From the NCBI GenBank assembly GCA_028718945.1, contig JAQUKT010000003.1, forward strand, positions 624-64,623: 64,000 nucleotides of DNA. The letters run 5' to 3'. The notes beneath the pieces are model-generated. The model was not told the DNA's origin and did not search any database. It saw only the letters and a list, made by a program, of their open reading frames with translations. Source of the DNA: Actinomycetota bacterium (GTDB lineage Bacteria; Actinomycetota; Geothermincolia; Fen-727; JAQUKT01). The stretch's first letter is position 1, and every line of letters begins with the position of its first letter. The position numbers and the translations under genes were made by a program. Below are positions 24,327 to 53,122 of this stretch, one piece after another.

Positions 24327-24734
24327 ATGAGAATAGCTGGCTTGGATGTTGGTGAGAAGATGATTGGAGTCGCAATAAGCGATGAATCCGGTGCAATAGC
24401 ACAACCTTTTAAGAGCATCGAAAGAGATTCAGGCGTTTTGGAGTGTCTTCGAGAGTTTTTTCGCGAATACGGAGTCGAAAAAATAATTGTTGGCATGCCT
24501 TTTCTTCTGAACGGCACAGAGGGCAGTGAGTCTCGCAAGACAAGGGAATTTGCCCGCGAGGTCGAGCAGGCTTGTGGTCTTTCCGTAGAGTTTCAGGATG
24601 AGAGACTTTCAACAAGGGAAGCGGAAGTTGTCCTCAAGAATGCGGCAATAAACAGGGATAAGAAACGAAGAGCAGGTCACAGTATTGCGGCTGCGCTGAT
24701 TCTTCAAAAATACCTCGAATCGTACAGGCGGTGA
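24327..24734 (+). CDS. ruvX: Putative pre-16S rRNA nuclease / Holliday junction resolvase-like YqgF (RuvX)
   Basis: MRIAGLDVGEKMIGVAISD; conserved position after alaS. Confidence 0.85.
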   Translation: MRIAGLDVGEKMIGVAISDESGAIAQPFKSIERDSGVLECLREFFREYGVEKIIVGMPFLLNGTEGSESRKTREFAREVEQACGLSVEFQDERLSTREAEVVLKNAAINRDKKRRAGHSIAAALILQKYLESYRR

Positions 24735-25591
24735 GGATGCACGATTATCCAGAATACGAAAGCAGGCTCGCCAAGAGAAGGGCAATTTCAAGGGAGAGAA
24801 AACGAAGAAAAATTACTTTTCTTGTTAGTTTTTTTCTCATAATTGTCATTGTGCCATTTTTTTTCTGGCTCGGGTGGCATTACCTCAAACCTGAAGAGAA
24901 GAGGCCTCTAAAAACATACAGAGTTGTAGTACCTGAGGGGCTTGATACAAGGCAAACTGCGCGTAAGGTTGCCTCGCAATGTGAAATAACTTATGACGAA
25001 TTCATGGCAGCAACGAACGATGATTACAGCAAAAAAAGTTTTCTGAAGGGTTCAAATGGGACGCTCGAAGGGTTCTTATTTCCGAAAACTTATGATGTGG
25101 ATTCAAAAACAACCGCGAAGGGACTAATATTGAGAATGCTTGACCAGTTTGAAACAGAAACATCCCCCCTCGACTGGTCAAAAGCTTCCTCTATGGGAAT
25201 GAGTAAGTATCAGATTCTCACAATCGCTTCTCTTATTGAGAAAGAGGCAAAGTTTTCTGATGAGAGACCGATCATCTCTTCCGTTGTCTATAACAGAATA
25301 AAGAAAAACATGAAACTTCAGATTGACGCGACCGTTCAATACTCTTTAGGTGAGTGGAAACCCTCATTGACTTACGATGACTTGAAGGTAGATTCTCCAT
25401 ATAATACTTACCTTTATTCCGGTCTACCACCCGGTCCAATTTGCAATCCAGGGATAGATTCCATCAGGTCGGCGCTAAACCCAGCGCAAACCGATTACAT
25501 TTATTATATTGTTACTTCTTCGGAGGGAAGACATAGTTTCACTGCGGACTATCAGCAATTCTTGAATTGGAAGAAAAGCAAAAGTGGTTAG
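24731..25591 (+). CDS. mltG: Endolytic murein transglycosylase MltG (YceG family)
   Basis: N-terminal TM helix and YceG motif GLPPGPICNPG. Confidence 0.85.
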   Translation: MRMHDYPEYESRLAKRRAISRERKRRKITFLVSFFLIIVIVPFFFWLGWHYLKPEEKRPLKTYRVVVPEGLDTRQTARKVASQCEITYDEFMAATNDDYSKKSFLKGSNGTLEGFLFPKTYDVDSKTTAKGLILRMLDQFETETSPLDWSKASSMGMSKYQILTIASLIEKEAKFSDERPIISSVVYNRIKKNMKLQIDATVQYSLGEWKPSLTYDDLKVDSPYNTYLYSGLPPGPICNPGIDSIRSALNPAQTDYIYYIVTSSEGRHSFTADYQQFLNWKKSKSG

Positions 25592-26072
25592 AAAAGGAGA
25601 GGTTTTGCTCGAGACTGAAGAGTCAATGCTACTTCAATTGAAAGCTCTCATGCGGATAGCCTCGATTCTTGATTCGGCTGGCGAAAGGGTTCTTGGAAAG
25701 GGAGCGGGGGCGATCATGTATCAGGCGGGTAAGGAAGAAGGGCGTGAACAGGGAAGAAAACTTGAACCTGCCTCGAATTTCAATGCCGCTTTGGCTTCGC
25801 TTCTTTTAGAAGGAAACACAATCTGCGATTTCGATTATTTTGAGGGCGAGAGTGCTTCACGGACAAAAGAAATCAGCGTAGTTGTTTTCAGGAGATGTCC
25901 GCTCAATGCGCTATCTCGCTCCACTGGTTCAAATTTAGGCGGATTTCTCTGTCAGGCATTGCATGGATACCTTGCTGGCTCAATTGAAGAAATGCTTGGG
26001 AAAAAGGTTGATTTGAGGACCCTGCACTCAGGGCCTCGTGCATGCAAGATTCGCGTTGAGATGGTGAAATGA
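25584..26072 (+). CDS. V4R (4-vinyl reductase-like) domain protein
   Basis: VVVFRRCPLNA...GFLCQALHGYLAGSIEEMLGKKVDL...GPRACKIRVE fits the V4R domain Cys pattern. Confidence 0.55.
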   Translation: MVRKGEVLLETEESMLLQLKALMRIASILDSAGERVLGKGAGAIMYQAGKEEGREQGRKLEPASNFNAALASLLLEGNTICDFDYFEGESASRTKEISVVVFRRCPLNALSRSTGSNLGGFLCQALHGYLAGSIEEMLGKKVDLRTLHSGPRACKIRVEMVK

Positions 26073-26917
26073 TGTTTGTTTCAACTGCGGAGTTCACTTC
26101 CTGTTGTGGTTGTCTTTCCTCTCTTCTCGAGGTGGGAGAACCTCTTGTTTCGCTCTTGAGTGAGCACAGTGTCTCTTTTTCGGAACTTGTAGATTTTCAA
26201 GACATTTCTCCTTCGGATGTCACTATTGTTTGGGGCTGCATTGGAGATGAAGAAGACGAAAGAATTGCCAATGAGGTTTCGAGGATGAGCAAGAAGATCA
26301 TCGCAGCTGGTTCTTGCGCTGTCTATGGTGGGATATCAGCAAGAATGCAGCAACTACCTTCGAAGGAACGGGTTCCTTCTTCACTCAGTAGATTTGAGCC
26401 AGTTGATGCCTACATTCCGGTTGACCTTTACGTTCCGGGTTGCCCTCCACCAGGCCGCATTCTGTTCGAAGCACTCAAAGGAACGCTTGAAGACTATACT
26501 CCGATTCATTATGACTATACAGTTTGTTCGGAGTGCAAACGGAAATGCGAGAAAAAGCACACGGGCAGGTGGTTCAAGAGAAACGAGCGGATACCTGTTG
26601 AAGGTATTTGTTTTCTCGATCAGGGATTTCTATGTATGGGACCAGTAACTCGTGGAGGATGTCATGCATCCTGTACTTCAAGAGGCGCAGCATGTATTGG
26701 GTGCAGGGGGCCATCCGATACTGTTCTTTTGTCTCATCTACATTCCCTTTATTCCGACATGCTTCACTATATTTCAATTTCCACTACTGGCAAGAGGGCG
26801 AAGCCGGAAAAGACACTCGAGGAATATATTGACCTACTTTACTTGTTTACACTTCGCGACCCGGTGACGAAAGAAAGACCAAGGGAAAGACTTCCGAGAA
26901 CAAAGGAAGAAAAGTAA
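26069..26917 (+). CDS. [NiFe]-hydrogenase small subunit-like (NuoB fold) with C-terminal Cys-rich FeS extension
   Basis: SCCGC...GSCAVYGG...PVDLYVPGCPPPG proximal-cluster motifs plus CSECKRKC...GFLCMGPVTRGGCHASC...ACIGCRGP. Confidence 0.7.
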   Translation: MMFVSTAEFTSCCGCLSSLLEVGEPLVSLLSEHSVSFSELVDFQDISPSDVTIVWGCIGDEEDERIANEVSRMSKKIIAAGSCAVYGGISARMQQLPSKERVPSSLSRFEPVDAYIPVDLYVPGCPPPGRILFEALKGTLEDYTPIHYDYTVCSECKRKCEKKHTGRWFKRNERIPVEGICFLDQGFLCMGPVTRGGCHASCTSRGAACIGCRGPSDTVLLSHLHSLYSDMLHYISISTTGKRAKPEKTLEEYIDLLYLFTLRDPVTKERPRERLPRTKEEK

Positions 26918-26918
26918 G

Positions 26919-28244
26919 ATGGATGAAACAGAAAGTGGCCGGACCGTAAGAATTTATCCTCTGACGAGAATACCCGGAAGAGCCGATATTCAAATACTTT
27001 TCTCACATAATGAAGAAGTAGAGGAAGCCAGATTCAGGGTTCTCAAATCAAGGAAACTTGAGAATATTGTAAGGGGAATGCCATGCTCTTACGCGCCACT
27101 AATTCTTTCAAGGTCTTGTGCTTCATGTGGACTGATGCACGCTCTTGCGAGCTCGATTGCGATTGAGCAAGCTTGTGGGGTTCAAGTTCCTCCTGCGGCG
27201 AAGGCTTTGCGGGAACTTGTTTCATCACTTTTTTTTGCATCAACGCATATCACTAACATGCTCTACTTCATGCTTCCAGATTACGCGCTCCCGATGTCAG
27301 ACTCAAAGGTCAGGAACGTGTTTGGAATATACAATGTCGAGCCGGAAATAATTAGCCGAATTGCACGTGTTCAATCCTCCTTTGTCAAGGCGATTTCAAA
27401 GGTTGCCGGAAAGTCCATTAACTCTTCCTTCTTCATTCCGGGCGGAGTATCCACCGGCGTGGATGAAAAATTGGTTTCAGATTTATTTCTTCTTGAAGGG
27501 TTGAAAGAGGACCTTGGCGAGATTCTGAACTTTTTGAGAACGCTTTTGAAAGGATGTTCAAGCGTTATGGATGCGGGAAGACCTTTGAGAGGCTTCTATT
27601 TTGGAGTCACCGATGATGATTACCCTTCTTTTTGCGGTGACTCTTTAACATTTGCCTCATTTTCAGGTGAAGAAAAAATCACCCTCGACAAGAGTCATTT
27701 CATTTCAGCAATAAAGAACACTCAGTCCGAATGGACGTGCGCTGAATCTATTTCGGTTGGAGAGTATGCGCCTGCTCTCACCGGTGCTCTGGCAAGAGCG
27801 AACCTTGGATTTGATTCGGCCTCTTTTGCGGGTGCTGAATCAAGCAAATGTTTCGAGATTTGGGGTCATCCCTTTTCGCGTGATTCCCTTTCAATTCTTG
27901 CGAAAGGTCTTGAAGTTATAAGAGCGTGGGAAAGAGCAATCGAAATAATAAAAAGCGAAAGCATCGTGGGCGAGGAAGTATTTGTTCCCTTCTCTTTTTC
28001 GCAGGGAACCGGTTGCTCTATTGTCGAGTCTCCAGCGGGAGTTATCGTTCACGAAGTCGCACTGGATGATGAGGGGTTTATTAGAGATTACCGAATTGCA
28101 ACTCCGCTTGATTTCAATTACCAGATGTTGAACGAGTGTCTTTCCAATGTGGCAAGAGATGTCGTTTCCGGGATCGACATAGATGATAAAGAGTCCATGA
28201 GATTGATGTTGTGTGTTAGGGCATTGAATTCATGTATGGTTTGA
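26919..28244 (+). CDS. [NiFe]-hydrogenase large-subunit homologue with non-canonical C-terminal metal-binding motif
   Basis: L1 motif RSCASCGLMH (RxCGxCxxxH with G to A) and THITNMLYF present. Expected C-terminal DPCxxCxxH is replaced by LCVRALNSCMV-stop, with no maturation extension. Confidence 0.65.
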   Translation: MDETESGRTVRIYPLTRIPGRADIQILFSHNEEVEEARFRVLKSRKLENIVRGMPCSYAPLILSRSCASCGLMHALASSIAIEQACGVQVPPAAKALRELVSSLFFASTHITNMLYFMLPDYALPMSDSKVRNVFGIYNVEPEIISRIARVQSSFVKAISKVAGKSINSSFFIPGGVSTGVDEKLVSDLFLLEGLKEDLGEILNFLRTLLKGCSSVMDAGRPLRGFYFGVTDDDYPSFCGDSLTFASFSGEEKITLDKSHFISAIKNTQSEWTCAESISVGEYAPALTGALARANLGFDSASFAGAESSKCFEIWGHPFSRDSLSILAKGLEVIRAWERAIEIIKSESIVGEEVFVPFSFSQGTGCSIVESPAGVIVHEVALDDEGFIRDYRIATPLDFNYQMLNECLSNVARDVVSGIDIDDKESMRLMLCVRALNSCMV

Positions 28245-28253
28245 CAGGCGGAA

Positions 28254-28523
28254 ATGGAAATCTATGAAATAAAGATTCTAAGAGAAAGATGTAAGGATTG
28301 CGGAAATTGCCTTGAGCTATGCCCTCAAAGCAAAGCAACCGAGACCCCCCCTGTTTTCCTCGAGGATGATGGAGTTGTGAGAGTAGGAAACCCGGCTTCT
28401 TGCATTGGTTGCTTTACGTGTGTGGAATTCTGTCGGGCATCTGCGGTTCGCGTCCTTCCAGCAGAGGGTTTTCCTCTGCTTCCCGATATATTCGTCTCGA
28501 GACCGACTTCGAGGATTTTCTAA
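28254..28523 (+). CDS. 2x[4Fe-4S] ferredoxin
   Basis: CKDCGNCLELCP and CIGCFTCVEFC cluster motifs. Confidence 0.7.
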   Translation: MEIYEIKILRERCKDCGNCLELCPQSKATETPPVFLEDDGVVRVGNPASCIGCFTCVEFCRASAVRVLPAEGFPLLPDIFVSRPTSRIF

Positions 28524-28574
28524 CCGACTGCCGACCTTCACCTTGAATCAATGTGATGAATGGTTGAATTCTTA

Positions 28575-28602
28575 TTCAATCAAAGATATTTCTCGATATA
28601 AT
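28575..28602 (+). promoter_or_regulatory. Weak promoter candidate (TTCAAT, 16-nt spacer, TATAAT) upstream of the first Roadblock gene
   Basis: Perfect -10 hexamer at 28597-28602, poor -35; SD GAGGAGG at 28629-28635. Confidence 0.3.
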
Positions 28603-28642
28603 AAAAGAAGAAAAAAATATTTCTAACTATGAGGAGGTTGTT

Positions 28643-29011
28643 TTGGCATCAACTCGTGAACAGCAAATGAAAGATTACCTTGAGGAACTGAAGGAAGCAG
28701 GCACAGGAATACTTTCTGCTGTACTTGTCAGCTCCGATGCTATGCCAATTGCGTCTGTTGGAGGCGAAGTTCAAGAGGAACTTATGAGCGCAATGGCTTT
28801 TTCTCTTTTGCAGGCAGGCGAACGGGTTGCAGCTGATTTGAACTGCGGAAATGTTGAGCAGCTTTATTTGAAGGGGGAGGGATGTGACTTTGTCATCCTC
28901 AGGGTAAATGATAATGCTGTTCTTGCCTGTACTGTTGACCATGATGCGAGGATGGGAATCATCCTTCTCGAGGTAAACAGGTGCGGCCAGAAACTTGTCG
29001 AAATCATATAG
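28643..29011 (+). CDS. Roadblock/LC7 (MglB-like) domain protein
   Basis: About 120 aa, SAVLVSSDAMPIAS...AFSLL pattern typical of Roadblock/LC7. Confidence 0.7.
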   Translation: MASTREQQMKDYLEELKEAGTGILSAVLVSSDAMPIASVGGEVQEELMSAMAFSLLQAGERVAADLNCGNVEQLYLKGEGCDFVILRVNDNAVLACTVDHDARMGIILLEVNRCGQKLVEII

Positions 29012-29056
29012 CGTGTCATATTGTCGAGGGTTTTTTGAAGAAAGGAAGAATGTCCT

Positions 29057-29593
29057 GTGGTAGAATTAAACGACGAGGGGAAAATAATCGGTGTTGTATC
29101 CTCTGAAGAAAAGGGAAAAGAGCTGGTTTCTGGTAATTCTGCTTTTGATTCTATGGAAAGCAGCAATAATAATACAGCTGGGGAGAAACATTTGGAGGAA
29201 CGGGAAACTCTACTTAGGAAGGAACTTGAGGGGCTCATTGAAAAATCCCCTGACATCGATGCCGCTGCGATTGTCAGTATGGATGGTTTTGTTATGGCGT
29301 CTATTCTTCCCCCGGAATACGAGGAAGACAGACTCGGCGCAATGACCGCTGCTTTGTTGAGTCTTGGTGAAAGAACAGCACTGGAACTCGGAAGGGGAGA
29401 GCTTGCTCAGGTATTTGTTGAGGGAACCAAGGGATATGTTTTTCTTCTTTCTGCCGGAGAGGATGCGGTTCTTGCCGCAATCGTTCGCAGGGGCAGTAAA
29501 CTCGGGCTCGTTTTGTATGATATCAGGAATGCGGCAACCAAGATCGCATCGATTTTTCAGACTGAATCAGAAATAGAAAATAGTTCTGAGTAG
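29057..29593 (+). CDS. Roadblock/LC7 domain protein with N-terminal extension
   Basis: C-terminal 120 aa (AAAIVSMDGFVMAS...AALLSLGER...FLLSAGEDAVLAAIV) matches Roadblock/LC7. Confidence 0.65.
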   Translation: MVELNDEGKIIGVVSSEEKGKELVSGNSAFDSMESSNNNTAGEKHLEERETLLRKELEGLIEKSPDIDAAAIVSMDGFVMASILPPEYEEDRLGAMTAALLSLGERTALELGRGELAQVFVEGTKGYVFLLSAGEDAVLAAIVRRGSKLGLVLYDIRNAATKIASIFQTESEIENSSE

Positions 29594-29607
29594 TGTGGTG
29601 ATATACT

Positions 29608-32382
29608 TTGCCGCCAGAGAAAGAGCTCAAGGGAAGTCTCAGAGATTTCAGTCTTCCAGATTTGTTTCAGTTGATACATTATGGAAGGAAAAGCGGTACC
29701 CTTAATTTAAGATACAATGATTTAAGGGGCTACGTTTGCTTCAGAAATGGCAAAGTTTTTTTTGCCACTCATAACTGGAAGCGACTTCCTCTCGGTAGAA
29801 GGCTCATCGAGTCCGAAACAATAACCGAAGACCAACTGGAGGAAGCCTTAGACCTCCAGAAGACAACACGAAGAGGTCAGCGTATTGGGGATATTCTCGT
29901 TGAGCTTGGATATTTGAGTCGAGAGTCCCTTGAGGTGTTTGTGGAAGAACAGATACGCGAGGCAGTTTTTCACCTCCTAAGATGGACCGAGGGGGAGTTC
30001 GAGTTCGACCCAAAACAGATTTTTCCGGAGGAGGACATTGGACTTTCAATGACTACTGAGGAACTGATAATGGAAGGCAGTCGCCGGCTTGATGAATGGG
30101 CAAAAATAGAAAAGAAGGTTCCTTCGCTCGAATCCATGTTTGAGTTGACCGGGATTGCGAAAAAAGATGAAGCCAATGAAAACCTGACCGACGAGGAGCG
30201 CCTTGTGCTCAACCATGTTAATGGTGAAAGCACTGTGCGGGATATGATCCAGAAATCCGGTTTAAGTGCACTGGCAACCTGCAAGGCTCTTTACGGGCTT
30301 GTGACAGCGGGTCTAATTTCGCTGAAGGGACAGAGGGCGCAAAGGGCGGCTCAAAGTGGTGGTCTGGAAGGTGAAATTGATAGATTCCAGGAGGAAACAA
30401 GAAGACCATCACCCGAAATTACCGAAAAGGCCAAAATCAGTTCGGAGACACGGATAGAAGAAAACGAAGAGATCCTTGAGGGGAAATCTGGTGTCGAAGA
30501 AATCGTGATAGGTGATGAAGAAATACATGTTGACAGAAGACGAAAAAGGTGGAAGAAAAAGCATGAGAAAGAGCCTGAAGTTGAGGTTGTAGAGGTTGAG
30601 GGTGGAGAGGAACCGGAGGAGGCGGAAGTCGGGAGTGAGGAAAAGTCATTGGAGAAAGTCAAGGAAGAAGAAGCTCCAGTAATTGTTCATGACGAGACAC
30701 TCGTTCCGGAACAGGTAGAAGAGAGTAAACCCTCTTCGGAGCAGAGCCTGGTTGACTACTACAAATCCCTGGCGATAAAAGAGGCATCTGATACTGAAAA
30801 GCTTGTTGCATTTCGCGAAACGGAGGAAAAATCAGAGAAAGAAAAGGTGGAAAGTAAACCGACTATTGAAGAGGAAGCCGCTCCCGTCAAGGAGATAGAG
30901 ATCCCAGAGTTTGAGGAACCAGAGGATGTTCCAATCGAATGGGCAAGTCATCTTTCAAGGTTGAAGGGAACAAGGGGAGTGAAATCAAAGGAAGTTCAAA
31001 AACCTATTGAGGTTGAGGCTTTGAAAGAAGAAGCGAAAGAGGAAGTAAACGAGGAGGTAGCTGAATCAAGAACAGAAGAGGCGCAAGAGGTTCCTGAAGC
31101 TGTTTCACGTTTCATGACTATAGAGCAGGAAGTGGAGGCACAGGCAACCGAGGAAGAAGGAATTTTCGGAGAGGTCACCGAGCTCGAGGAACCTTCGAAA
31201 ATCGAGACATCAAAACTGGAGCTGGCGTTAGGTGCCGAGGAAGTTTCGGGAATATCCGAAGAAGTCGAGGAAACAGCCTCAATGACTGCAATTGATGAGA
31301 TCGAGAGGTTAGTTGAGGGAGTGAAGGAAGGCAGGGGAGAAATTTCGCGCGAGGAACTTCTTACTTATGACCAGCCAACTTATCCTGATATTGGGGTTCG
31401 GCATGCTGAACCTATTGGGGAGGAAGAAAAGCCTTCGAAAGAAGTAGAAGTCGAAGAAGAACATGAGCGCATTGGAGGCAAGAAGAAAAAGCGGCTCGGA
31501 AAAGTTCTGAAATTTGTAAAGCCTGAGGAGGCTGAATTAGAGGAACATGAGTTAGAGGAACCTCTTATGTTTTCTGATGTCGAGCAGGTTGTCTTGTCTT
31601 CCAAGGAAGTGCTGGCATCTGCGCCTGTTCTCGACTTACCAATTATTGCTGAGCCAGAGGCAGGTTCCGAAGAGTCGCTTATTTCCGGAGGGGAGGTTAT
31701 CGAGGAGGAAGCCATTCCGCTTGTTGAGTCAGAATATGTGGTGGAGCCTTCAAGAGAGGTGATTGAAGAAACTCCTTCTGTTCCAGCCGAGATGATTGTG
31801 AGCGAAGAGCCTATGGAGGCTTCTATTCTTGAAGAAGAAGCAATCTCTGTCGAGGAAGTTTCAGAAGAGCAGGTTGAAGTAGCAAGGCCTTCCAGTGAGG
31901 TCAGGGTTGAAGAAGCCGAGACTGCCAGCGAGCAGTTTGATCTCGAAATGGAGGGAATGTCAGCGCTGAGAGAGCTATCGAGTGATAAGGCAGTCTTAGG
32001 GGGGGCAAAGCCCCTAATAGAGGAAGAAGAGGAAGAGCCTCCGCCGGAACCCGAAGTTTTAGAGAAGCCTATATCCGGACCCATGGAGGAAGAAGAGGAG
32101 GAGGAAGAAGAGGAAGAGGGTGTTTTCTCTCTCCAGGTTGGAGGGAGAAGGGGTGCGGGGACAAGCTTGATCGACCTTGAGACACTTGAACTCGAACAGG
32201 AACTTCTTGAGATTGCTGGCAGAAACAAAAAAAAGGAAGAAAGAAGACCTGTTCCAAAGGAGGTCAAGGAAGCGGAAGTGAAGAAGAAGGCAAAGAGAGG
32301 AGATCAAAACCTTAAGAAGCGGGGGGAAGAGAGTAACAAGGGTTCCATCAAGAAGGCGATTGACGACCTGAAAAAGAAATAG
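29608..32382 (+). CDS. DUF4388 domain protein with MshEN/T2SSE_N-like motif and ~600-aa polyacidic (Glu-rich) disordered C-terminus
   Basis: N-terminus FSLPDLFQLIHYGRKSGTLNL...GKVFFA...GEFEF (DUF4388) and ITEDQLEEALDLQKTTRRGQRIGDILVELGYLS (MshEN-like), then E/V/K low-complexity to residue 924. Confidence 0.7.
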   Translation: MPPEKELKGSLRDFSLPDLFQLIHYGRKSGTLNLRYNDLRGYVCFRNGKVFFATHNWKRLPLGRRLIESETITEDQLEEALDLQKTTRRGQRIGDILVELGYLSRESLEVFVEEQIREAVFHLLRWTEGEFEFDPKQIFPEEDIGLSMTTEELIMEGSRRLDEWAKIEKKVPSLESMFELTGIAKKDEANENLTDEERLVLNHVNGESTVRDMIQKSGLSALATCKALYGLVTAGLISLKGQRAQRAAQSGGLEGEIDRFQEETRRPSPEITEKAKISSETRIEENEEILEGKSGVEEIVIGDEEIHVDRRRKRWKKKHEKEPEVEVVEVEGGEEPEEAEVGSEEKSLEKVKEEEAPVIVHDETLVPEQVEESKPSSEQSLVDYYKSLAIKEASDTEKLVAFRETEEKSEKEKVESKPTIEEEAAPVKEIEIPEFEEPEDVPIEWASHLSRLKGTRGVKSKEVQKPIEVEALKEEAKEEVNEEVAESRTEEAQEVPEAVSRFMTIEQEVEAQATEEEGIFGEVTELEEPSKIETSKLELALGAEEVSGISEEVEETASMTAIDEIERLVEGVKEGRGEISREELLTYDQPTYPDIGVRHAEPIGEEEKPSKEVEVEEEHERIGGKKKKRLGKVLKFVKPEEAELEEHELEEPLMFSDVEQVVLSSKEVLASAPVLDLPIIAEPEAGSEESLISGGEVIEEEAIPLVESEYVVEPSREVIEETPSVPAEMIVSEEPMEASILEEEAISVEEVSEEQVEVARPSSEVRVEEAETASEQFDLEMEGMSALRELSSDKAVLGGAKPLIEEEEEEPPPEPEVLEKPISGPMEEEEEEEEEEEGVFSLQVGGRRGAGTSLIDLETLELEQELLEIAGRNKKKEERRPVPKEVKEAEVKKKAKRGDQNLKKRGEESNKGSIKKAIDDLKKK

Positions 32383-32388: not shown

Positions 32389-32931
32389 TTGATTTTGAAC
32401 AACAAGTTCAAAATTCTTGTGACGGGACCATATAACTCGGGGAAGACAACATTCATAGGAACAATAAGCGAAATTCAGGTTGTATCTACCGAAAAAAAAT
32501 TGAGGAGTGCTCAAGGAACTACAACTGTGGCAATGGACTATGGAAGAATAACGTTGAGTGATGGAGATGTTATTCACCTTTATGGGACACCGGGTCAGGA
32601 AAGATTTGATTTCATGTGGAGAATTCTTTCAAGGGGGATTCTCGGTTACGTTGTGCTTGTTGATGGAAGCGATCCGGGGGCTTTCGCTCAAGTCTCAAAA
32701 ATTATTGATGTTTTTTCTAAGATGACTGATGCCCCGTACGTTTTATGTTTGACCCGTGCCGATCTTAGGGATTGCGTCTCTTCGGAAGAGGCAAGAAGGT
32801 TTATTAGGGCTTCCGCTGATGTAGATATCCTCGAATGCAATGCGAAGAGTAGAGAGGATGTGAGGGATGTCATAGTGTCTCTTCTTGAAAGAGTCATTGA
32901 GAGTATGGAGGCTAAGTGTTTCGTTCCATAG
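32389..32931 (+). CDS. Small Ras-like GTPase, COG2229 (CvnD/MglA-related) type
   Basis: P-loop GPYNSGKTT, TTVAMDYGRI, LYGTPGQERFDFMW and VVLVD match Roadblock-associated COG2229 GTPases. Confidence 0.75.
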   Translation: MILNNKFKILVTGPYNSGKTTFIGTISEIQVVSTEKKLRSAQGTTTVAMDYGRITLSDGDVIHLYGTPGQERFDFMWRILSRGILGYVVLVDGSDPGAFAQVSKIIDVFSKMTDAPYVLCLTRADLRDCVSSEEARRFIRASADVDILECNAKSREDVRDVIVSLLERVIESMEAKCFVP

Positions 32932-33131: not shown

Positions 33132-33998
33132 ATGAGGATCGATGGAAATACGAGACTTGTTGGTATCATAGGCAATCCTTTAGAGCACACCCTGTCGCCC
33201 GTGATACATAATGCAGCTTTCGACTACATGGGATTGAACTGGTGCTATGTCCCGCTTCCAGTTGAACATGATGAGATCGAGAAAGCGCTTGAAGGTATCA
33301 AGGTTTTTAGGTTTGCGGGTGTAAATGTGACAATGCCGTTCAAGACCGCGGTTCTTCCTTTTCTTGACGAGGTTGCAATGTTTGCTGAATCCGTCGGTGC
33401 GGTGAACACTATATTATTCGATAAGGACAAACTCATAGGTTACAACACGGATGGGCGCGGTTTCTATACTGCTTTGAGCCGCGATTTAGGTTATGATGTA
33501 AGGGGAAAGAAGGTCTTGATTCTCGGTGCTGGAGGAGCCGCAAGGAGCGTAACTATTTCACTCGCTGTTGCTGGTTGCTCGAGAATGGTCATTGTGAATC
33601 GCTCGAGCGAAAGGGCGAGGAGTCTTAAGGAAATAATAAGAAGAAGTTCTTCTGATGTTGAGGTGCAGTGTCTCACTCCCGAGGAAGACTATGACGTTCT
33701 TCTTGCAGATTCGGATTTGATAATAAACGCGACACCTGTTTTTTCTTTCGGGAAGTCTGGGTTGAGAATTCCTGTTGCCATGCTGAACAAAAGTCAGGTT
33801 GTGTGTGACCTCAATTATTCATCATACTATTCCCCTCTCCTCGAGGAAGCAGAGGCACGAGGCGCTACCGTCATGGATGGGAAAGGAATGTTGCTTTATC
33901 AGGCAGCGACAGCTTTTGAGATATGGACGGGGCTCGAGGCACCCGTTGAAGTAATGAGAGTAGCGCTTCTGAGGGCGCTCGATGAAGCACGTATTTGA
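33132..33998 (+). CDS. aroE: Shikimate dehydrogenase AroE
   Basis: LVGIIGNPLEHTLSP...NVTMPFK...GAGGAARS. Confidence 0.88.
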   Translation: MRIDGNTRLVGIIGNPLEHTLSPVIHNAAFDYMGLNWCYVPLPVEHDEIEKALEGIKVFRFAGVNVTMPFKTAVLPFLDEVAMFAESVGAVNTILFDKDKLIGYNTDGRGFYTALSRDLGYDVRGKKVLILGAGGAARSVTISLAVAGCSRMVIVNRSSERARSLKEIIRRSSSDVEVQCLTPEEDYDVLLADSDLIINATPVFSFGKSGLRIPVAMLNKSQVVCDLNYSSYYSPLLEEAEARGATVMDGKGMLLYQAATAFEIWTGLEAPVEVMRVALLRALDEARI

Positions 33999-34034
33999 TG
34001 GATCATGAGCATTTAGGCATGGATTTCAGGTGAC

Positions 34035-35732
34035 ATGATGGAAAAACCAAGGCAGGAAAGGCTCGGTCAACTCCTTCTGGAAAAGAACCTGATAACTGAT
34101 GATCAATTGAAGGAGGCATTGTCCGAGCACGAAGATACAGGAAAATCACTTGGAAGGGTTCTTATAGAAAAGGGAATGCTTACCGAAGGCCAACTTACAA
34201 GCGTTCTTGCTGAGCAGATTGGAATCAAATATATAGACCTCGATTCGTACCAGATTGACCCGGCTGCGGCTGTCCTGGTAGATGGAAATCTTGCGAGAAG
34301 ATACTCGGTTATGCCAATCGAGTTCGAAGACGGGAAATTAGTGGTCGCAATGTCCGACCCCACAAACGTTTTCGCACTCGACGATCTTCGGATAATGACC
34401 GGGATGGAGATTTTGCCTGTTGTGAGCACGAGGGACGAAATAAATGCGGCTATAGATAGATACATACATACGGATGTTGACCTCGAGGAAGTTCTCGAGG
34501 AAGTGCCTCTTCCGGAGGAGGTTGAGGAAGGCGAAACGGAGGAATTGAAGGAGGCAGCTGGGGAAGCTCCGATTGTCAAGTATGTCAATCTGATAATTGA
34601 TGAGGCTGTGAATGAAAACGCGAGCGATGTTCACATAGAACCCGGGGAGAAGGATGTGCGAATAAGATATCGCGTTGACGGCGTTCTTCATGAGGTTCGA
34701 AAGTCACCGAAGAGAATTCACCCAGGGCTTGTATCTCGAATCAAAATTCTTGCGAATATGAATATCGCTGAAAGGAGAGTCCCACAAGATGGTCGCTTTG
34801 CGATGACGGTGGGTAGCAAATTCATTGACTTGAGAGTGGCGAGTTTGCCAACTGTTTACGGAGAGAAAATCGTGCTTCGAATCCTTGACAGATCATCAAT
34901 ACTTATGAAACTCGAAGACCTTGGGATGGAGCCCGAGCCGCTGGAGGTATTTAAAAACGCTTTCAGGAGGCCATACGGAACGGTTATTGTTACCGGACCA
35001 ACAGGGTGTGGAAAAACAACCACTCTTTATGCGGCGCTTGCCGAACTCAACAAGCGCGAGGTGAACGTTATCACTGTTGAAGATCCGGTTGAATATCAGA
35101 TGGCTGGTTGCAATCAGGTTCAGGTGAACGCGAAAGTCGGGCTCACTTTCGCTGCGAGTTTGAGGTCTATTCTGAGGTGCGACCCCGACATAGTGATGAT
35201 TGGCGAGGTGCGTGACCCTGAGAGTGCCAAGATGGCAATCGAGTCAGCGCTTACAGGACACATGGTTCTCTGTACGCTGCACACAAATGACGCTCCCGCG
35301 GCGATGACAAGAATGACCGAGATGGGCGTTGAACCCTTCCTGATTTCTTCTGCGGTGGATGCCGTGGTCAGCCAGAGGCTTGCAAGGAAGCTGTGCAAGA
35401 GGTGCAAGGAAGAGACGACATATGACGCGGAATATCTCGAGAGCGTAGGGTTTCCGGTTGATGAAATGAAAGATGAAAAGGTTGTGCTTTACAGGGCGAA
35501 AAAGGGAGGTTGTCCTTTCTGCGCCGGGACCGGTTTCAGGGGAAGAATAGGGGTTTTCGAGGTTCTGCATGTAGATGAGGAAATAGAAAAACTTGTAGTC
35601 AGTCTTGCCACCGCGCGTGAAATAGGAAATGAAGCGCGAAAGAGGGGAATGAAGACTCTGAGGCAGGATGGTTTTATAAAGGTCAAGAATGGGATAACTT
35701 CCATTGAGGAAATCCTGCGTGTTATCATGTAG
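34035..35732 (+). CDS. pilB: Type IV pilus assembly ATPase PilB (GspE family) with tandem MshEN-type N-terminal motifs
   Basis: LGQLLLEKNLITDDQLKEAL and SLGRVLIEKGMLTEGQL N-terminal motifs, Walker A GPTGCGKTTTL, tetracysteine CKRCK...CPFCAGTG. Confidence 0.92.
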   Translation: MMEKPRQERLGQLLLEKNLITDDQLKEALSEHEDTGKSLGRVLIEKGMLTEGQLTSVLAEQIGIKYIDLDSYQIDPAAAVLVDGNLARRYSVMPIEFEDGKLVVAMSDPTNVFALDDLRIMTGMEILPVVSTRDEINAAIDRYIHTDVDLEEVLEEVPLPEEVEEGETEELKEAAGEAPIVKYVNLIIDEAVNENASDVHIEPGEKDVRIRYRVDGVLHEVRKSPKRIHPGLVSRIKILANMNIAERRVPQDGRFAMTVGSKFIDLRVASLPTVYGEKIVLRILDRSSILMKLEDLGMEPEPLEVFKNAFRRPYGTVIVTGPTGCGKTTTLYAALAELNKREVNVITVEDPVEYQMAGCNQVQVNAKVGLTFAASLRSILRCDPDIVMIGEVRDPESAKMAIESALTGHMVLCTLHTNDAPAAMTRMTEMGVEPFLISSAVDAVVSQRLARKLCKRCKEETTYDAEYLESVGFPVDEMKDEKVVLYRAKKGGCPFCAGTGFRGRIGVFEVLHVDEEIEKLVVSLATAREIGNEARKRGMKTLRQDGFIKVKNGITSIEEILRVIM

Positions 35733-35761
35733 AAGGTTTTATTGAGAAGCGGAGGTGAAAT

Positions 35762-36838
35762 GTGGCAAAGCAAGCGCTAAAAATTGATATCAATGAACTC
35801 TTGGAGGAGGTCATAAAAAGGGGTGCTTCCGACCTTCACGTTACGGTGGGCGTACCGCCCGTTCTTCGGATAAACGGTGTTCTTCAGAGGATGGACCTTC
35901 CCAAACTGACGAGTAACGATACAAGGGAGATGGTATATTCTATTCTTACCGCTCGTCAGAGAGAACAACTCGAGAGCAACCTCGAGTTTGACCTTTCCTA
36001 CTCGGTTCCTGGTAGCGCTCGCTTTCGCGTCAATGCATTCTTTCAGAGGAACTCTGTCGGAGCGGCATTCAGGATTATTCCCTACCGTATCAAGACCATC
36101 GAGGAGTTGAAACTGCCGCTCGTGATAAAAGAGTTTGCTCGCCTCCCAAGGGGGTTTGTGCTTGTTACCGGACCAACCGGTCAGGGGAAATCCACCACTC
36201 TTGCGGCGATAATTGACCTCATAAACTCAATCCGTGAAGAGCATATCATAACCATTGAGGACCCCATAGAATTCTTGCATCTTCACAAAAAGTGTATTGT
36301 CAACCAGCGGGAGGTCGGCTCTGATACGCACTCGTTCGCAAATGCCTTGAAATATGCCTTGCGTCAGGACCCTGATGTAATTCTCGTTGGTGAGATGAGA
36401 GACCTCGAGACGATTTCAACGGCTCTTACTGCCGCCGAGACAGGACACCTTGTCTTTGCGACTCTCCATACACAGGATTCTCCCCAGAGTATTGATCGAA
36501 TTGTTGATGTTTTCCCAACCTACCAGCAGTCGCAGGTACGGCTGCAGCTCGCGTCAACGATTCAGGCGATTGTTTCCCAGCAACTCGTTCCCACAAAGGA
36601 CAGACGCTCGAGAATCCCTGCGGTGGAGGTTATGATAGCGACTTCAGCAATCAGAAACATGATAAGGGATGCAAGGGTTCATCAGATATATTCCGCAATG
36701 CAGGCAGGCGGACAGCTCAGGATGCAGACAATGGACGCGTCTCTGGCAGCGCTATATCGGGCAGGCCAGATAGTATATGAGACGGGGCTTGCCAGGGCGC
36801 ACAACAAGGATGATTTCAGAAGATTGGTAGGTAGATAG
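35762..36838 (+). CDS. pilT: Twitching motility ATPase PilT
   Basis: ASDLHVTVGVPP, GPTGQGKSTT, AIRNMIRD; 358 aa. Confidence 0.9.
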   Translation: MAKQALKIDINELLEEVIKRGASDLHVTVGVPPVLRINGVLQRMDLPKLTSNDTREMVYSILTARQREQLESNLEFDLSYSVPGSARFRVNAFFQRNSVGAAFRIIPYRIKTIEELKLPLVIKEFARLPRGFVLVTGPTGQGKSTTLAAIIDLINSIREEHIITIEDPIEFLHLHKKCIVNQREVGSDTHSFANALKYALRQDPDVILVGEMRDLETISTALTAAETGHLVFATLHTQDSPQSIDRIVDVFPTYQQSQVRLQLASTIQAIVSQQLVPTKDRRSRIPAVEVMIATSAIRNMIRDARVHQIYSAMQAGGQLRMQTMDASLAALYRAGQIVYETGLARAHNKDDFRRLVGR

Positions 36839-36959
36839 ATAGGAATACTCATAAAATTTTGCTGCGTGGATTTTTTGAAATTTTTGTTACATTTGTAAAG
36901 AATTGATGTTATTATTAAGATCAAGGTAAAGAGTTCGATGATTTCGGGAGGTATGAGAG

Positions 36960-38177
36960 TTGGCAGAGTCTTTTACCTACACTGTAAGAGATAAGGCAGG
37001 CAGGGAAGTAACCGGCTCGCTCGAGGCAGAGTCAGCGGAAGTTCTTGCCGCGAAGCTCCGCCAAATGGGATATTTTGTTGTTTCGGTTGAACAGGTTAGA
37101 AAATCAATCGCGAAAAAGGAAATACACATCTTCGGCGTAAAGGTGAAAAGCGATGATTTGACCATATTCACCCGCCAGTTTGCCACCATGATAAACGCCG
37201 GTCTTCCACTCATAAAGTGCTTGAGCATACTTGCCCAGCAGACGGAATCATCAGCTCTTGCTGATATCATCATGGATTGCCAGAAAGAAGTGGAAGCGGG
37301 TCGTTCGTTATCAGAAGCTCTTGCCAAGCATCCGGAGGCATTTACTGACCTTTATGTGAGCATGGTTCGCGCGGGTGAACTTGGTGGTATGCTTGATGAT
37401 GTTCTCCTGAGAGTTGCAAATCAGCTCGAGCGTGACGCTGAAATCAAACGCAAGATAAAGTCAGCGATGACCTATCCAGTTGCCGTTCTTGGAATTTCCG
37501 TTCTGCTACTTACAATTATGATTATTTTTGTTGTCCCGAAATTTTCTTCAATGTTTGAGAACCTCGGCGCGAAACTACCGGGGTTCACACAGATGCTCGT
37601 TAATGTAAGCCACTTCGTGGGTGGATATGGAGGCTTGATAATACTTGCCTTCATTATTGGCTTTGTGATTGTCTATCGCAGATTCAAGGCGACCGAGCGG
37701 GGGAAGCTCACTTTAGATAGAATCAAACTACACCTTCCAGTTGTTGGAAATCTCTTTCACAAGACAGCAATGTCAAAGTTCTCGAGAACTCTTGGAACTC
37801 TGATTTCATCGGGTGTTCCGATACTCGGTGCTCTCGAGATAACGGGAGAAACAACAGGGAATATGGTTATTACCAAGGCGCTGGAGGAAGTGAGGTCTGG
37901 TGTCAAGGAAGGCGAAACAATAGCCGCTCCACTTGCTCAGGCTGAAGTCTTCCCGCCGATGGTCACCCAGATGATAGCGATTGGTGAGGAAACAGGAGCG
38001 CTTGATGTTATGCTCAGCAAGGTTAGCGATTTCTATGACAGTGAGGTGAACACGGCGGTTGACGGTCTCACATCAATGCTCGAGCCAGTACTCATAGTTT
38101 TCCTTGGTGGCACGGTTGGAACCGTTGTTGTTGCTCTATATATGCCGATATTCAGTATTGTCACCAAGATCAAATAG
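36960..38177 (+). CDS. pilC: Type IV pilus platform protein PilC (GspF family)
   Basis: Two GspF-type repeats with three TM segments; TTG start with SD GGGAGG. Confidence 0.9.
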   Translation: MAESFTYTVRDKAGREVTGSLEAESAEVLAAKLRQMGYFVVSVEQVRKSIAKKEIHIFGVKVKSDDLTIFTRQFATMINAGLPLIKCLSILAQQTESSALADIIMDCQKEVEAGRSLSEALAKHPEAFTDLYVSMVRAGELGGMLDDVLLRVANQLERDAEIKRKIKSAMTYPVAVLGISVLLLTIMIIFVVPKFSSMFENLGAKLPGFTQMLVNVSHFVGGYGGLIILAFIIGFVIVYRRFKATERGKLTLDRIKLHLPVVGNLFHKTAMSKFSRTLGTLISSGVPILGALEITGETTGNMVITKALEEVRSGVKEGETIAAPLAQAEVFPPMVTQMIAIGEETGALDVMLSKVSDFYDSEVNTAVDGLTSMLEPVLIVFLGGTVGTVVVALYMPIFSIVTKIK

Positions 38178-38251
38178 TGTTAAAGTGTTTTCGACTATTT
38201 GCCGAATATTAGAAAGAAATAAAGTTAGGATTGAAAGGAGGTGAAAGTCAA

Positions 38252-38596
38252 ATGAAGGTTATTCGCAGTAATAAAGGCTTCACGCTTATTGAACTTATGA
38301 TTGTAGTTCTTATCATTGCCATCCTGGTTGCGATAGCTGTGCCTGTCTATATAAACACTCAGGAAAACGCAAAGAAGAGAGCCTGTCAGGACAATGTGAG
38401 AACGGTGGACGGGCAGATACAGGCGTATCAGGCAAGTGAGCCAAATCAATCATATCCAGCCAATCTTGCCGCTCTTGTCACTGGTAAGTTCCTGAAAAGT
38501 ACTCCAATGTGCTCGAAGTCGGCGAGTGGAACATACGCTTGGATAACTGGTACTCCCCCTTACATATCCTGCACAGTCCATCCTCCGGTAGATTGA
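38252..38596 (+). CDS. pilA: Type IV (major) pilin PilA
   Basis: Class III signal MKVIRSNKG|FTLIELMIVVLIIAIL with Glu+5; SD AAAGGAGG. Confidence 0.85.
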   Translation: MKVIRSNKGFTLIELMIVVLIIAILVAIAVPVYINTQENAKKRACQDNVRTVDGQIQAYQASEPNQSYPANLAALVTGKFLKSTPMCSKSASGTYAWITGTPPYISCTVHPPVD

Positions 38597-38621
38597 TTAT
38601 TTTTGGTTCAGGCTTGAAGCT

Positions 38622-38652
38622 GGAGTCCTCAGATTTGAGGGCTCCTTTTTCA
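38622..38652. terminator. Bidirectional rho-independent terminator between pilA (+) and the convergent DUF2723 gene (-)
   Basis: Hairpin GGAGTCCTCA-gattt-GAGGGCTCC followed by TTTTT. Confidence 0.6.
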
Positions 38653-38654
38653 TA

Positions 38655-40886: not shown

Positions 40887-40935
40887 GGCTAAATTATAGA
40901 CTTGGTTTTCAGGTTCTTCAAAAAATGGAGGCAGA

Positions 40936-41844
40936 ATGACCTGGTTTTATTATTTTGTTTCATTTTGTTTCGGGCTGATATTTGGAAGTTTTTTCAATGT
41001 TTGCATTTATAGGATTCCCAAGAAGGGATCGCTCGGAGAAAGGTCGAGGTGTCCTTTTTGCGGGGAGATAATACGTTGGTATGACAACATTCCGCTGTTG
41101 AGTTTCGCATTACTGAGAGCGAAATGCAGGCATTGCCATTCTCCCATTTCAATACAATATCCGATTGTCGAAGCTCTCACCGGTTCCTTGTTCGTTCTTG
41201 CTTACTGGTGGAGCACCGAATTTGTTCCTAAGGAATTGCACATAGAACAACAAGTTATTATCCCTGAACTCTTTCTCGGCCTTATTCTTGTCTCGATTCT
41301 CATTATCATCTCTGTGATTGATATTCAAAAGATGATTATCCCAAACATTGTAATCGGTCCGGGGATAGCCTTATCCTTTCTTTTGGTTGTCGCGTTTAGC
41401 CTTTCGAGGAGCCAACCAGGGCGTATCTCCCTTTCTCTTCTTTCAGGCACGATAGGGAGTGGATTCCTTCTAATTGTGGGGTTGCTTTACGGATATCTCT
41501 TCACGGAGAAATCCCCGCCTTCGGTGGAGGGGGATAAGGGAGAATCCGGGGAAGAAGAAATCAATGACGAAGGTGAAGGGATAAGAACGGGAGTGGGATT
41601 TGGTGATATCAAACTTGTTTTCTTCACCGGTCTCGTTCTTGGGTATTTTCACTGGTATTTGATCCTTGTTCAGTTGTTTTTTGGTTTCCTTATTGGCTCA
41701 CTGGTATCTATTGCACTTATGTTGATTTTCCATATTGGCAGAAAAGAACATGTTCCGTTTGGTCCATTTCTTGCTGCGGGTGCGGTAATCTCACTTGTAT
41801 TCGGTAGCAATCTTGTGGAGTTTTACCTGAAGATGTTTAGGTAA
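40936..41844 (+). CDS. pilD: Prepilin peptidase PilD (A24 family) with ~30-aa acidic loop insertion
   Basis: N-terminal tetracysteine CPFCG...CRHC, catalytic-Asp region GFGDIKL; insertion SVEGDKGESGEEEINDEGEG. Confidence 0.88.
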   Translation: MTWFYYFVSFCFGLIFGSFFNVCIYRIPKKGSLGERSRCPFCGEIIRWYDNIPLLSFALLRAKCRHCHSPISIQYPIVEALTGSLFVLAYWWSTEFVPKELHIEQQVIIPELFLGLILVSILIIISVIDIQKMIIPNIVIGPGIALSFLLVVAFSLSRSQPGRISLSLLSGTIGSGFLLIVGLLYGYLFTEKSPPSVEGDKGESGEEEINDEGEGIRTGVGFGDIKLVFFTGLVLGYFHWYLILVQLFFGFLIGSLVSIALMLIFHIGRKEHVPFGPFLAAGAVISLVFGSNLVEFYLKMFR

Positions 41845-41992
41845 GATTCATACTGGACCCTAAACTCTGAAGACAGAATCATATATAGAAAACTTTCGGC
41901 TCGTTCCTTTGAAACGTTTTACAAACCGATAAAATTTTATTAAACTGATAATAACTGCTATAGTTTGTTGAAAAAGTTGACGAATTAAAGTA

Positions 41993-42028
41993 TTGACAAC
42001 TTAGGTTGAAATGATACATAATTTTAGT
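41993..42028 (+). promoter_or_regulatory. Sigma70-like promoter candidate (TTGACA, 17/18-nt spacer, CATAAT) followed by palindrome CTCAAGTTGAG
   Basis: In 265-nt AT-rich intergenic region upstream of the small HTH gene and pilMNO; perfect palindrome at ~42036-42046 with a half-site repeat GTCTCAAC at ~42053. Confidence 0.4.
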
Positions 42029-42109
42029 CTCAAGTTGAGATAGATTGAAACAGTCTCAACCAGAGAATAAGATTTAAGCTCTTCGCCTTTACGATGGAAG
42101 TGAGCAAAA

Positions 42110-42277
42110 TTGAGCAAAAAGTTACTTACAGTTAATGAAGTGGCTCAGATACTTCGCGTTTCGAATATGACCGTATATCGCCTTGTTAAAAGCAAACAGA
42201 TTCCAGCCATTAAGGTTGGAAAGAATTATCGCATAAAAGAAAGCGATGTGGATGACTACTTGAAAAGGGGCTCATGA
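42110..42277 (+). CDS. Small (55 aa) helix-turn-helix DNA-binding protein, excisionase/MerR-like family
   Basis: TTG-initiated ORF LSKKLLTVNEVAQILRVSNMTVYRLVKSKQIPAIKVGKNYRIKESDVDDYL. Below the 60-aa cut-off, so absent from the ORF track. Confidence 0.5.
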   Translation: MSKKLLTVNEVAQILRVSNMTVYRLVKSKQIPAIKVGKNYRIKESDVDDYLKRGS

Positions 42278-42309
42278 TAGGTCAAGACAGGATGTTTTAG
42301 GTGATGTGA

Positions 42310-43371: not shown

Positions 43372-43372
43372 A

Positions 43373-44781: not shown

Positions 44782-44797
44782 TATCGGATGGTGAGAG

Positions 44798-45400: not shown

Positions 45401-45409
45401 TTGGTAATT

Positions 45410-45433
45410 GGGGTCAGACCTTCATTTTTGGTG
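45410..45433 (-). repeat. REP-like repeat arm B, minus orientation (GGGGTCAGACCTTCATTTTTGGTG on + strand)
   Basis: Reverse complement of arm B at 9903 and 55246. Confidence 0.75.
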
Positions 45434-45520
45434 TTTTTCCATCTAATCGGCGCGTTTTGCTATAGCGTTAGTGTTATCTCGAAGATTTTTTTGAGAAGAC
45501 CTTGAATGTTCAAGGGAGTT

Positions 45521-45556
45521 GGGCGGCACCATTTGCGGGTGCCGCAACTTTTTGTT
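45521..45556 (+). terminator. Rho-independent terminator after the pilus operon
   Basis: Perfect 8-bp stem GCGGCACC-atttgc-GGTGCCGC followed by AACTTTTTGTT. Confidence 0.65.
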
Positions 45557-53119: not shown

Positions 53120-53122
53120 CTC

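Follow-up and report, generated by a model that had tools for sequence, protein, structure and literature searches.

We describe a four-gene module, encoded on the + strand at positions 25584–28523 of a 64,000-nucleotide stretch of Actinomycetota DNA (the window, taken from contig JAQUKT010000003.1 of the metagenome-assembled genome (MAG) GCA_028718945.1), in which a homologue of the large subunit of soluble [NiFe] hydrogenases lacks part of the ligand set of the Ni-Fe site. The module consists of a V4R-fold protein, a hydrogenase small subunit, the large-subunit homologue and a ferredoxin, and lies upstream of genes for two Roadblock/LC7 proteins, a PATAN protein and a Ras-like small GTPase. 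Alignments and a tree place the large subunit at the extreme of a monophyletic clade, not described before, that is restricted to Candidatus (Ca.) Geothermincolia-type Actinomycetota, and in which the catalytic second shell is dismantled, with all 20 Fe-S cysteines of the accompanying small subunit and ferredoxin invariant. We infer that the window protein is unable to bind a canonical Ni-Fe(CN)2CO centre and does not turn over H2, and we put at about one half the probability that the module is a hydrogenase-derived Fe-S sensor of redox state (possibly of H2) that signals to the Roadblock/PATAN/GTPase switch.

A first-pass annotation of this DNA had placed four open reading frames (ORFs) here and described a [NiFe]-hydrogenase-like pair with an incomplete ligand set, which it took for either a hydrogenase with an unusual site or a sensory/redox module. 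All four ORFs lie where it had put them, and its description of the pair is borne out by both alignment and family matches. Of the two options, the sensory/redox module fits the data better than the hydrogenase with an unusual site, because the proton-gate Glu and the Asp of the DPC motif are gone, ligand Cys have been lost or replaced in four lineages, and the Fe-S Cys are invariant.

Active-site residues and Fe-S cysteines across the clade

The large-subunit homologue (441 amino acids; 26919–28244, + strand) is of the group 3c/3d type by Pfam, NCBIfam, Protein Data Bank (PDB) profile and AlphaFold2 (AF2) comparisons. Its match to the Pfam family NiFeSe_Hases is confined to the N-terminus, and its best NCBIfam match is VhuA (127 bits against a cut-off of 800; E = 7e-37). 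A profile of the clade matched 7t2r_D, MvhA (5odc_F) and HoxH (5xf9_D) in the PDB, and the AF2 model (predicted template-modelling score, pTM, 0.82) resembles MvhA 5odc_F with a template-modelling score (TM) of 0.84, which gives the protein, as modelled, the large-subunit fold of catalytic [NiFe] hydrogenases.

Numbering active-site residues by alignment of the clade to E. coli HyaB, we found that the N-terminal L1 motif is retained, as had been noted, in the form R65-S-C67-A-S-C70-G-L-M-H74 (27111–27140, +), with C67 corresponding to HyaB C76 and C70 to C79. At the position of the proton-gate Glu (HyaB E28) the window protein has Pro19, in the motif TRI-P-GRAD (26973–26975, +), and at the position of the pendant Arg (HyaB R509, in 'PRG') it has Ala373, in the sequence S-P-A-G (28035–28037, +). 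According to published work, HyaB E28 serves as a universal proton gate, and rapid H2 oxidation depends on R509, which is strictly conserved (PMC8020662; PMC10430524). Both residues are present in each of nine canonical references. Of the C-terminal DPCxxCxxH/R motif the window protein has neither the Asp nor the second Cys nor the His.

The losses extend beyond the window, to different degrees, across 27 cassette sequences that we compared with the nine canonical group-3 references in HyaB numbering. All nine references carry E28, R509, D574, the four Cys and H/R582. Among the cassette members, E28 occurs in 2 of 27 and is Asp in one more, leaving it absent from 24, where the residue is mostly Gln; D574, the Asp of DPC, occurs in none (0/27). 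At R509 six members deviate: the window has Ala, its sister locus L001 has Ser, L019, L022 and L024 have Glu, and P0034 has Gln. A ligand Cys corresponding to C79 has become Asp in L022 (7132–8451) and L024 (1637–2944), and L052 (P0062; 8017–9339) ends N-P-H-F-H-D-A-V-F, with His in place of C576 and Asp in place of C579. Counting the window, Ni/Fe Cys have thus been lost or replaced in four lineages; 23 of the 27 members, as well as C-terminal fragments, keep the four Cys and the terminal His. The Asp and His residues that replace Cys in L052, L022 and L024 could still ligate metal, and these substitutions hint at a metal site that may have been remodelled in these proteins rather than emptied.

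The cluster-binding residues of the module show the opposite pattern of conservation. The small subunit (282 amino acids; 26069–26917, +) matches the Pfam family Oxidored_q6 (E = 2.9e-21) and has VhuG as its best NCBIfam match (122 bits against a cut-off of 450); it is of the MvhG/VhuG type, aligning to MvhG (5odc_E) over the proximal half and over the C-terminal half that holds the medial and distal clusters. Its 12 conserved Cys provide for three clusters, with C12, C15, C83 and C125 at the proximal cluster and C153, C156, C181, C189, C198, C202, C209 and C212 at the medial and distal clusters. The Cys-rich extension that had been taken for an extra feature of this protein is the standard C-terminal domain of MvhG/VhuG. 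The ferredoxin (89 amino acids; 28254–28523, +; Fer4_10 and Fer4_7 matches) is a 2x[4Fe-4S] protein with eight Cys in two CxxCxxCxxxC motifs, as the annotation had it. In all 11 of 11 loci compared, the most divergent included, the 12 small-subunit cluster Cys and the 8 ferredoxin Cys are invariant, and the same 20 Cys are invariant in a second set that contains the ligand-deficient L024 and L052.

General decay of the window large subunit is not supported. Of 78 positions with a conservation of 90% or more in the clade, it keeps 63 and changes 15, where its sister L001 changes 10, and its branch in a neighbour-joining tree is as long as that of the sister (0.263 and 0.245, respectively). With the 63 retained positions and an ORF that is uninterrupted over its 441 codons, the large subunit looks like a maintained protein and not a decaying one. 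Within the block of genes described below, the large subunit evolves faster than all others except the ferredoxin, which is equally divergent: between L006 and L017 its identity is 52%, compared with 70% for AlaRS and 92% for the second Roadblock protein (Robl2), and its invariant columns amount to 10%, compared with 33% and 58%, respectively. In some related assemblies the large subunit is frameshifted (L007, 2628–4005; L026 and L034, 7300–8669), and the small subunit is split in L043 and the V4R gene in L046; because genes other than the large subunit are also split in similar assemblies, these interruptions are probably assembly noise rather than pseudogenisation.

We searched 1.84 billion representative proteins with the large subunit and recovered a handful of close relatives, the next matches being ordinary group-3 enzymes; neither a large-subunit alignment searched against genome contigs nor the single protein searched against metagenomes gave any matches. 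With an alignment of the V4R-fold protein as the probe, 13 loci were found in GTDB genomes and 23 in JGI metagenomes, labelled Ca. Anoxymicrobiaceae, Ca. Geothermincolia or Actinomycetota. Three MAGs labelled 'Acidimicrobium ferrooxidans' or 'uncultured Acidimicrobiales' (L017, L009 and L012) carry the fully syntenic cassette, and their labels look wrong. In the neighbour-joining tree (165 sequences) all cassette large subunits form one clade, in which the window and L001 are sisters and which stands beside sulfhydrogenase-like sequences, whereas hidden Markov model (HMM) scores favour a VhuA-like ancestry, with P0037 reaching 240 bits to VhuA. The clade thus appears to be derived from group 3, and 3c/3d-like by HMM, with tree and HMM disagreeing on its place within that group. 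Among the papers searched we found none that describes the clade or that links hydrogenases to a small GTPase, Roadblock, PATAN, MglA or V4R.

The C terminus of the large subunit

The window protein ends LCVRALNSCMV, followed by TGA. In the alignment the remnant R434-A-L-N-S-C439-M-V441, which with its TGA (28242–28244) spans 28218–28244 (+), pairs with R-x-F-x-P-C-x-x of the relatives, placing C439 at HyaB C576 and C432 at a non-conserved position. The CX6C that had been proposed as a remnant of the C-terminal motif is therefore wrong, since it joins the non-conserved C432 to the third ligand Cys. Compared with every full-length relative (...RxFxPCVxCGTH-stop), the window protein is missing the four end residues Cys-Gly-Thr-His, which include the bridging Cys (HyaB C579) and the His (H582); Ni and Fe are bridged by two cysteines, of which C579 is one (PMC8020662). 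The large subunits of the clade end at the His without a cleavable extension, and the annotation was right that the window protein, which stops at ...C-M-V, has none either. It had also said that a canonical DPCxxCxxH emerging from careful alignment would overturn its view of the pair; no such motif emerged in the window, and the relatives carry xPCxxCGTH.

At the level of DNA, 13 of 13 other loci end TGY-GGN-ACN/GTG-CAY-stop, and the window alone reads TGT ATG GTT TGA. The three codons past the TGA are CAG GCG GAA (Q-A-E), with no vestige of GGN-ACN-CAY, and the ferredoxin ATG follows the stop after 9 nucleotides (nt), compared with a stop-to-start distance of ~7–12 nt in L001, L002, L009 and L011. 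The simplest history that these sequences suggest is that the final four codons (12 nt) dropped out in frame and the natural stop was kept. No close relatives of the window's own sub-lineage were found in our searches, and the truncation is known from one population.

Two other accounts of this end would remove the truncation altogether. The TGA sits on the column of the fourth Cys, exactly where CxxC has its second Cys, and shares its frame with the ferredoxin ORF. Read as selenocysteine (Sec), the codon would turn the site into CxxU and fuse the large subunit by read-through to the ferredoxin; purported natural Sec replacements of the bridging Cys are mentioned in the literature (PMC8020662). 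We nevertheless regard Sec at the TGA as highly improbable and reject it. No Sec insertion sequence (SECIS) or other Rfam family was found in 27900–28700, even at E up to 10, and the 69 nt from the TGA fold poorly (-3.1 kcal/mol against a shuffle mean of -5.4; z = +1.35; 185 of 200 shuffles equal or exceed this stability). In addition, the downstream Q-A-E differs from the invariant G-T-H, the 9-nt gap to the ATG is ordinary intergenic spacing, the sister locus L001 has its ferredoxin in another frame, the window contains no tRNA or sel genes, and TGA is the plain stop of AlaRS, the V4R protein and AroE in the same DNA. An alternative genetic code is rejected because TGA ends several ordinary window genes. 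The window protein thus shares with [NiFeSe] hydrogenases a UGA at a ligand column but has neither a SECIS nor the downstream G-T-H. The remaining account, an error of assembly or sequencing, could appeal to the source being a MAG and to the frameshifts, in the large subunit or in other genes, of the related assemblies L007, L026, L034, L043 and L046. However, an independently assembled Logan contig (7107 bp, run SRR22315506) is 100% identical to the window over 25008–32114, so the truncation is not an artefact of one assembler, and the change itself removes four codons cleanly and in frame, leaving a proper stop and an unaltered spacing to the ferredoxin. On the strength of the identical contig we reject this account, which we find scarcely credible.

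The V4R-fold protein and the GTPase cassette

The first gene of the module (25584–26072, +) encodes 162 amino acids, or 155 if translation starts at the alternative start at 25605. The small-subunit ORF overlaps it by 4 nt, and the large-subunit ORF in turn begins 1 nt after the small subunit. The protein has no Pfam or NCBIfam match, the Pfam V4R model (PF02830) failing to match it even at E up to 10, and its assignment comes from a fold search. Searched with Foldseek, its AF2 model (mean predicted local distance difference test, pLDDT, 79) matched the V4R domains of PoxR, MopR and DmpR, MJ1460, and TRAPPC3/TPC6/Bet3, with E ~2e-4, probability 1.0 and TM ~0.5. Its homologues fall into 24 clusters, some of them named by JGI 'predicted hydrocarbon binding protein'. 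The annotation had called it a V4R partner with four Cys; the fold holds by AF2 and Foldseek, the Pfam family does not, and only C105, C123 and C154 of the Cys are conserved, together with H148. The fourth Cys of the H-C-G-P-R-A-C-K motif, usual at position 149, is Ser in the window and Ala or Met in some relatives. Because His148 is invariant and position 149 varies, the metal site of the V4R-fold proteins may be of the Cys3His type. Proteins of the V4R/TRAPPC3 kind bind ligands and have a Zn site made of Cys (PMC10933270). The window protein resembles the known members (PoxR, MopR, DmpR, MJ1460 and Thor-TRAPPC3) in predicted fold and in having a Cys/His cluster at their Zn position; it differs from known V4R domains in being too divergent for PF02830, in standing alone at ~160 amino acids, and in having Ser for the fourth Cys.

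Downstream of the ferredoxin, on the same strand, lie genes for a Roadblock/LC7 protein of 122 amino acids (28643–29011; Robl_LC7, E = 1.8e-10), a second of 178 amino acids (29057–29593; Robl_LC7, E = 1e-17), a PATAN (DUF4388/PatA_N) protein of 924 amino acids (29608–32382; DUF4388, E = 2.1e-37) and a Ras-superfamily small GTPase of the MglA/CvnD type with 180 amino acids (32389–32931; ATP_bind_1, Ras and Arf matches), so that a Ras-like GTPase, Roadblock/LC7 proteins and a PATAN protein occur together, as in MglA/MglB/PATAN modules. The second Roadblock protein matches 7f8m, CvnB5 (3leq) and MglB in the PDB and, at the 92% identity between L006 and L017 given above, is the most conserved gene of the block. 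The GTPase, annotated 'ATP/GTP-binding protein' and with more than 7900 homologues, matches Rab/Sec4 and MglA (E = 1e-6 to 6e-5). MglA-type GTPase genes neighbour MglB/Roadblock and PATAN genes elsewhere (PMC4316618), and PATAN regulators are reported, in a preprint, to interact with the type IV pilus motor. The PATAN protein of the window contains an MshEN-related cyclic di-GMP-binding motif (NF053729, E = 3.9e-15; amino acids 61–115, ~29788–29952) and a Glu-rich, low-complexity tail of ~650 amino acids, and its total length ranges from 450 to 1347 amino acids among relatives. A Ser-rich antisense ORF of 295 amino acids lies inside its gene (31380–32267, -), most likely just a reflection of the Glu-rich repeat on the + strand and not a gene.

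The order AlaRS, RuvX, MltG, V4R, small subunit, large subunit, ferredoxin, Roadblock x2, PATAN, GTPase, AroE recurs in every sufficiently long locus among the ~35 related ones and holds down to 28% large-subunit identity (L019 compared with L006). The deep branches P0037, P0038, P0058, P0062 and P0129 carry the block too, with a third Roadblock gene and nine genes in all. The block is flanked by mltG and aroE, which we take to be normally adjacent in actinobacteria such as M. tuberculosis; on that assumption the eight genes look like one insertion. In a Chloroflexota contig (Ca. Promineifilaceae; L049, 8032–9543) a PATAN and GTPase pair, the GTPase 47% identical, stands without Roadblock or hydrogenase-like genes. 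Because this pair stands without it, the hydrogenase-like half looks like an add-on, and the comparison indicates that PATAN-GTPase would be the minimal conserved pair.

The window holds ~62 ORFs, of which 38 were scanned against Pfam and the remainder read by eye; within these limits we detected no hyp or hyc genes, in agreement with the annotation. The other ORFs are housekeeping and type IV pilus genes. In the window aroE is followed by pilB, pilT, pilC, a pilin gene, pilD, pilM and pilO, and this pil cluster lies between aroE and aroC, aroK, aroB and aroQ (the last four assigned by eye). If alaS-ruvX-mltG-aroE...aroCKBQ is the ancestral order, as we presume, two insertions appear to split it (observed over 24731–25591 and 33132–48897). 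Further along are a sigma factor of extracytoplasmic function (ECF) type, assigned by eye, with a DUF5667 protein (49077–51663, -), and a run of proteins of 192–971 amino acids (51867–62221), most of them with prepilin-type N-terminal motifs by eye and mostly without a Pfam match, which adjoins a Peptidase_C25 (gingipain-family) gene (53725–55110, -).

Known systems, competing explanations and consequences

The best sequence and fold matches of both subunits are to the group 3c enzymes MvhAG/VhuAG (5ODC) and the group 3d and HydSL enzymes (7T2R, 5XF9), which the module resembles in being soluble, with no Tat signal or membrane partner, and in having the L1 motif and a three-cluster small subunit. 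It departs from group 3c in its distance from the family models (127 of 800 for VhuA and 122 of 450 for VhuG) and in its partners, a V4R protein and a small ferredoxin; MvhD, HdrABC and a diaphorase were found neither in the window nor in related loci. It departs from 3c and 3d alike in that the clade is without the proton-gate Glu and the DPC Asp, and the window protein also without the Arg, the fourth Cys and the His.

Hydrogenases that act as sensors are known from group 2b (HoxBC/HupUV), whose H2 sensors possess an intact, active Ni-Fe site and act on a histidine kinase. The likeness lies in the concept of a hydrogenase as sensor, in the absence of a cleavable extension, in the cytosolic location and in the position beside signalling genes. 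In contrast to group 2b, the clade belongs to group 3 by its best matches, its site is eroded and, in the window, the ligand set is incomplete; its neighbours are Roadblock, PATAN and a Ras-like GTPase, with no kinase gene nearby. Transitions from hydrogenase to non-hydrogenase are known for the membrane-bound group 4 lineage: Ehr complexes and NuoB/NuoD of complex I are derived from group 4, are membrane-bound with antiporter-like subunits, and have kept only the proximal cluster. With them the clade shares a large-subunit fold stripped of Ni/Fe ligands and a small-subunit homologue that keeps an Fe-S function. However, the window module appears to be a soluble derivative of group 3c/3d with three clusters and a ferredoxin, ligand loss in the clade is only partial and differs between lineages, the NuoD model matches the large subunit only at E = 4.7e-5 compared with 7e-37 for VhuA (both NCBIfam), and there are no adjacent membrane-subunit genes; the kinship with Ehr that the first-pass annotation had suggested is therefore one of analogy only. 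On the signalling side, MglA/MglB and conservon (CvnA-D) modules likewise bring a Ras-like GTPase, Roadblock/LC7 and, as here, PATAN into one neighbourhood. Conservons have a sensor gene upstream, a slot that in the window is taken by the hydrogenase-like Fe-S module and the V4R protein; unlike them, the window block has no histidine kinase or DUF742 gene.

If the module is a sensor, selection would maintain a relay of five clusters together with the large subunit as its structural partner, and the unit would report redox state, possibly acting as a slow H2 sensor in those relatives whose Cys are complete. A small ligand on the V4R protein may modulate the state of the unit. The signal would pass by protein–protein contact to the Roadblock/PATAN/GTPase switch, which would control the adjoining type IV pilus machinery, by analogy with MglA/MglB and the PATAN regulators. 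The coupling to the switch and to the pili is a hypothesis built on gene order in one lineage and on that analogy. The annotation had spoken of the module feeding the adjacent GTPase cassette: the physical link stands, in all sufficiently long loci, and the feeding is backed by gene order in the one lineage only. A more specific form of the proposal, which we offer tentatively, is that in these anaerobic Actinomycetota a soluble hydrogenase has become the sensory input of a Ras-like GTPase polarity switch steering the adjacent type IV pili, giving H2 or redox taxis. The report would then run through the five Fe-S clusters and a Ni-Fe pocket that is being repurposed (Cys to Asp or His) or truncated, and the window organism would have reached the end point, at which a Ni-Fe site is dispensable.

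Several observations weigh against a sensor coupled to the GTPase. The coupling is read from gene order in one lineage and at one chromosomal position, where the flanking housekeeping genes are equally syntenic, and the synteny could have been inherited vertically, with the genes functionally unrelated. An AT-rich gap of 120 nt (28523–28643) separates the Roadblock genes from the ferredoxin, and a scan for promoters and terminators matched shuffled expectation. Most clade members, with four Cys and the His, could still mature a Ni-Fe site, and hyp genes and hydrogenases of groups 3b, 3c and 3d have been reported from related Actinomycetota classes (PMC7325909). The truncation, confined to one population, could be a recent loss-of-function allele. 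The main alternative is that the clade consists of true [NiFe]-hydrogenases, cytosolic and coupled to ferredoxin, of a divergent group 3c/3d type, that the adjacency of the GTPase is inherited synteny, and that the window copy is a recent loss-of-function allele on its way to becoming a pseudogene; the 23 of 27 members (and C-terminal fragments) with complete Cys and His, the intact small subunit and ferredoxin, the MvhA-like fold (TM 0.84), the hyp genes and 'group 3c' hydrogenases of the related classes (PMC7325909) and the uniqueness of the truncation all speak for it. We consider this alternative plausible but less likely than the sensor. The proton-gate Glu is gone from 24 of 27 members, the DPC Asp from 27 of 27 and the Arg from 6 of 27; three lineages other than the window have swapped a ligand Cys for Asp or His; and the large subunit outpaces every gene of the block but the equally divergent ferredoxin. 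The window ORF, which is intact, keeps 63 of 78 positions and has a branch as long as that of its sister, does not look like decay, and no locus supplies the MvhD, Hdr or diaphorase partner of such an enzyme.

The clade would represent a second, independent transition from hydrogenase to non-hydrogenase, this time in a soluble group-3 lineage and caught at several stages of Ni-Fe site loss with its Fe-S relay complete, and would offer a natural series for asking which residues a Ni-Fe site needs. Proteins of the clade have probably been counted as 'group 3c hydrogenases' in reconstructions of Wood-Ljungdahl Actinomycetota, whose H2 metabolism may consequently be over-called; by our own reasoning, the 'group 3c' calls in PMC7325909 may include this clade. 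If the link to the GTPase is functional, an Fe-S or H2 sensor would be a new kind of input for bacterial Ras-like GTPases, and redox sensing would be tied to the control of type IV pili.

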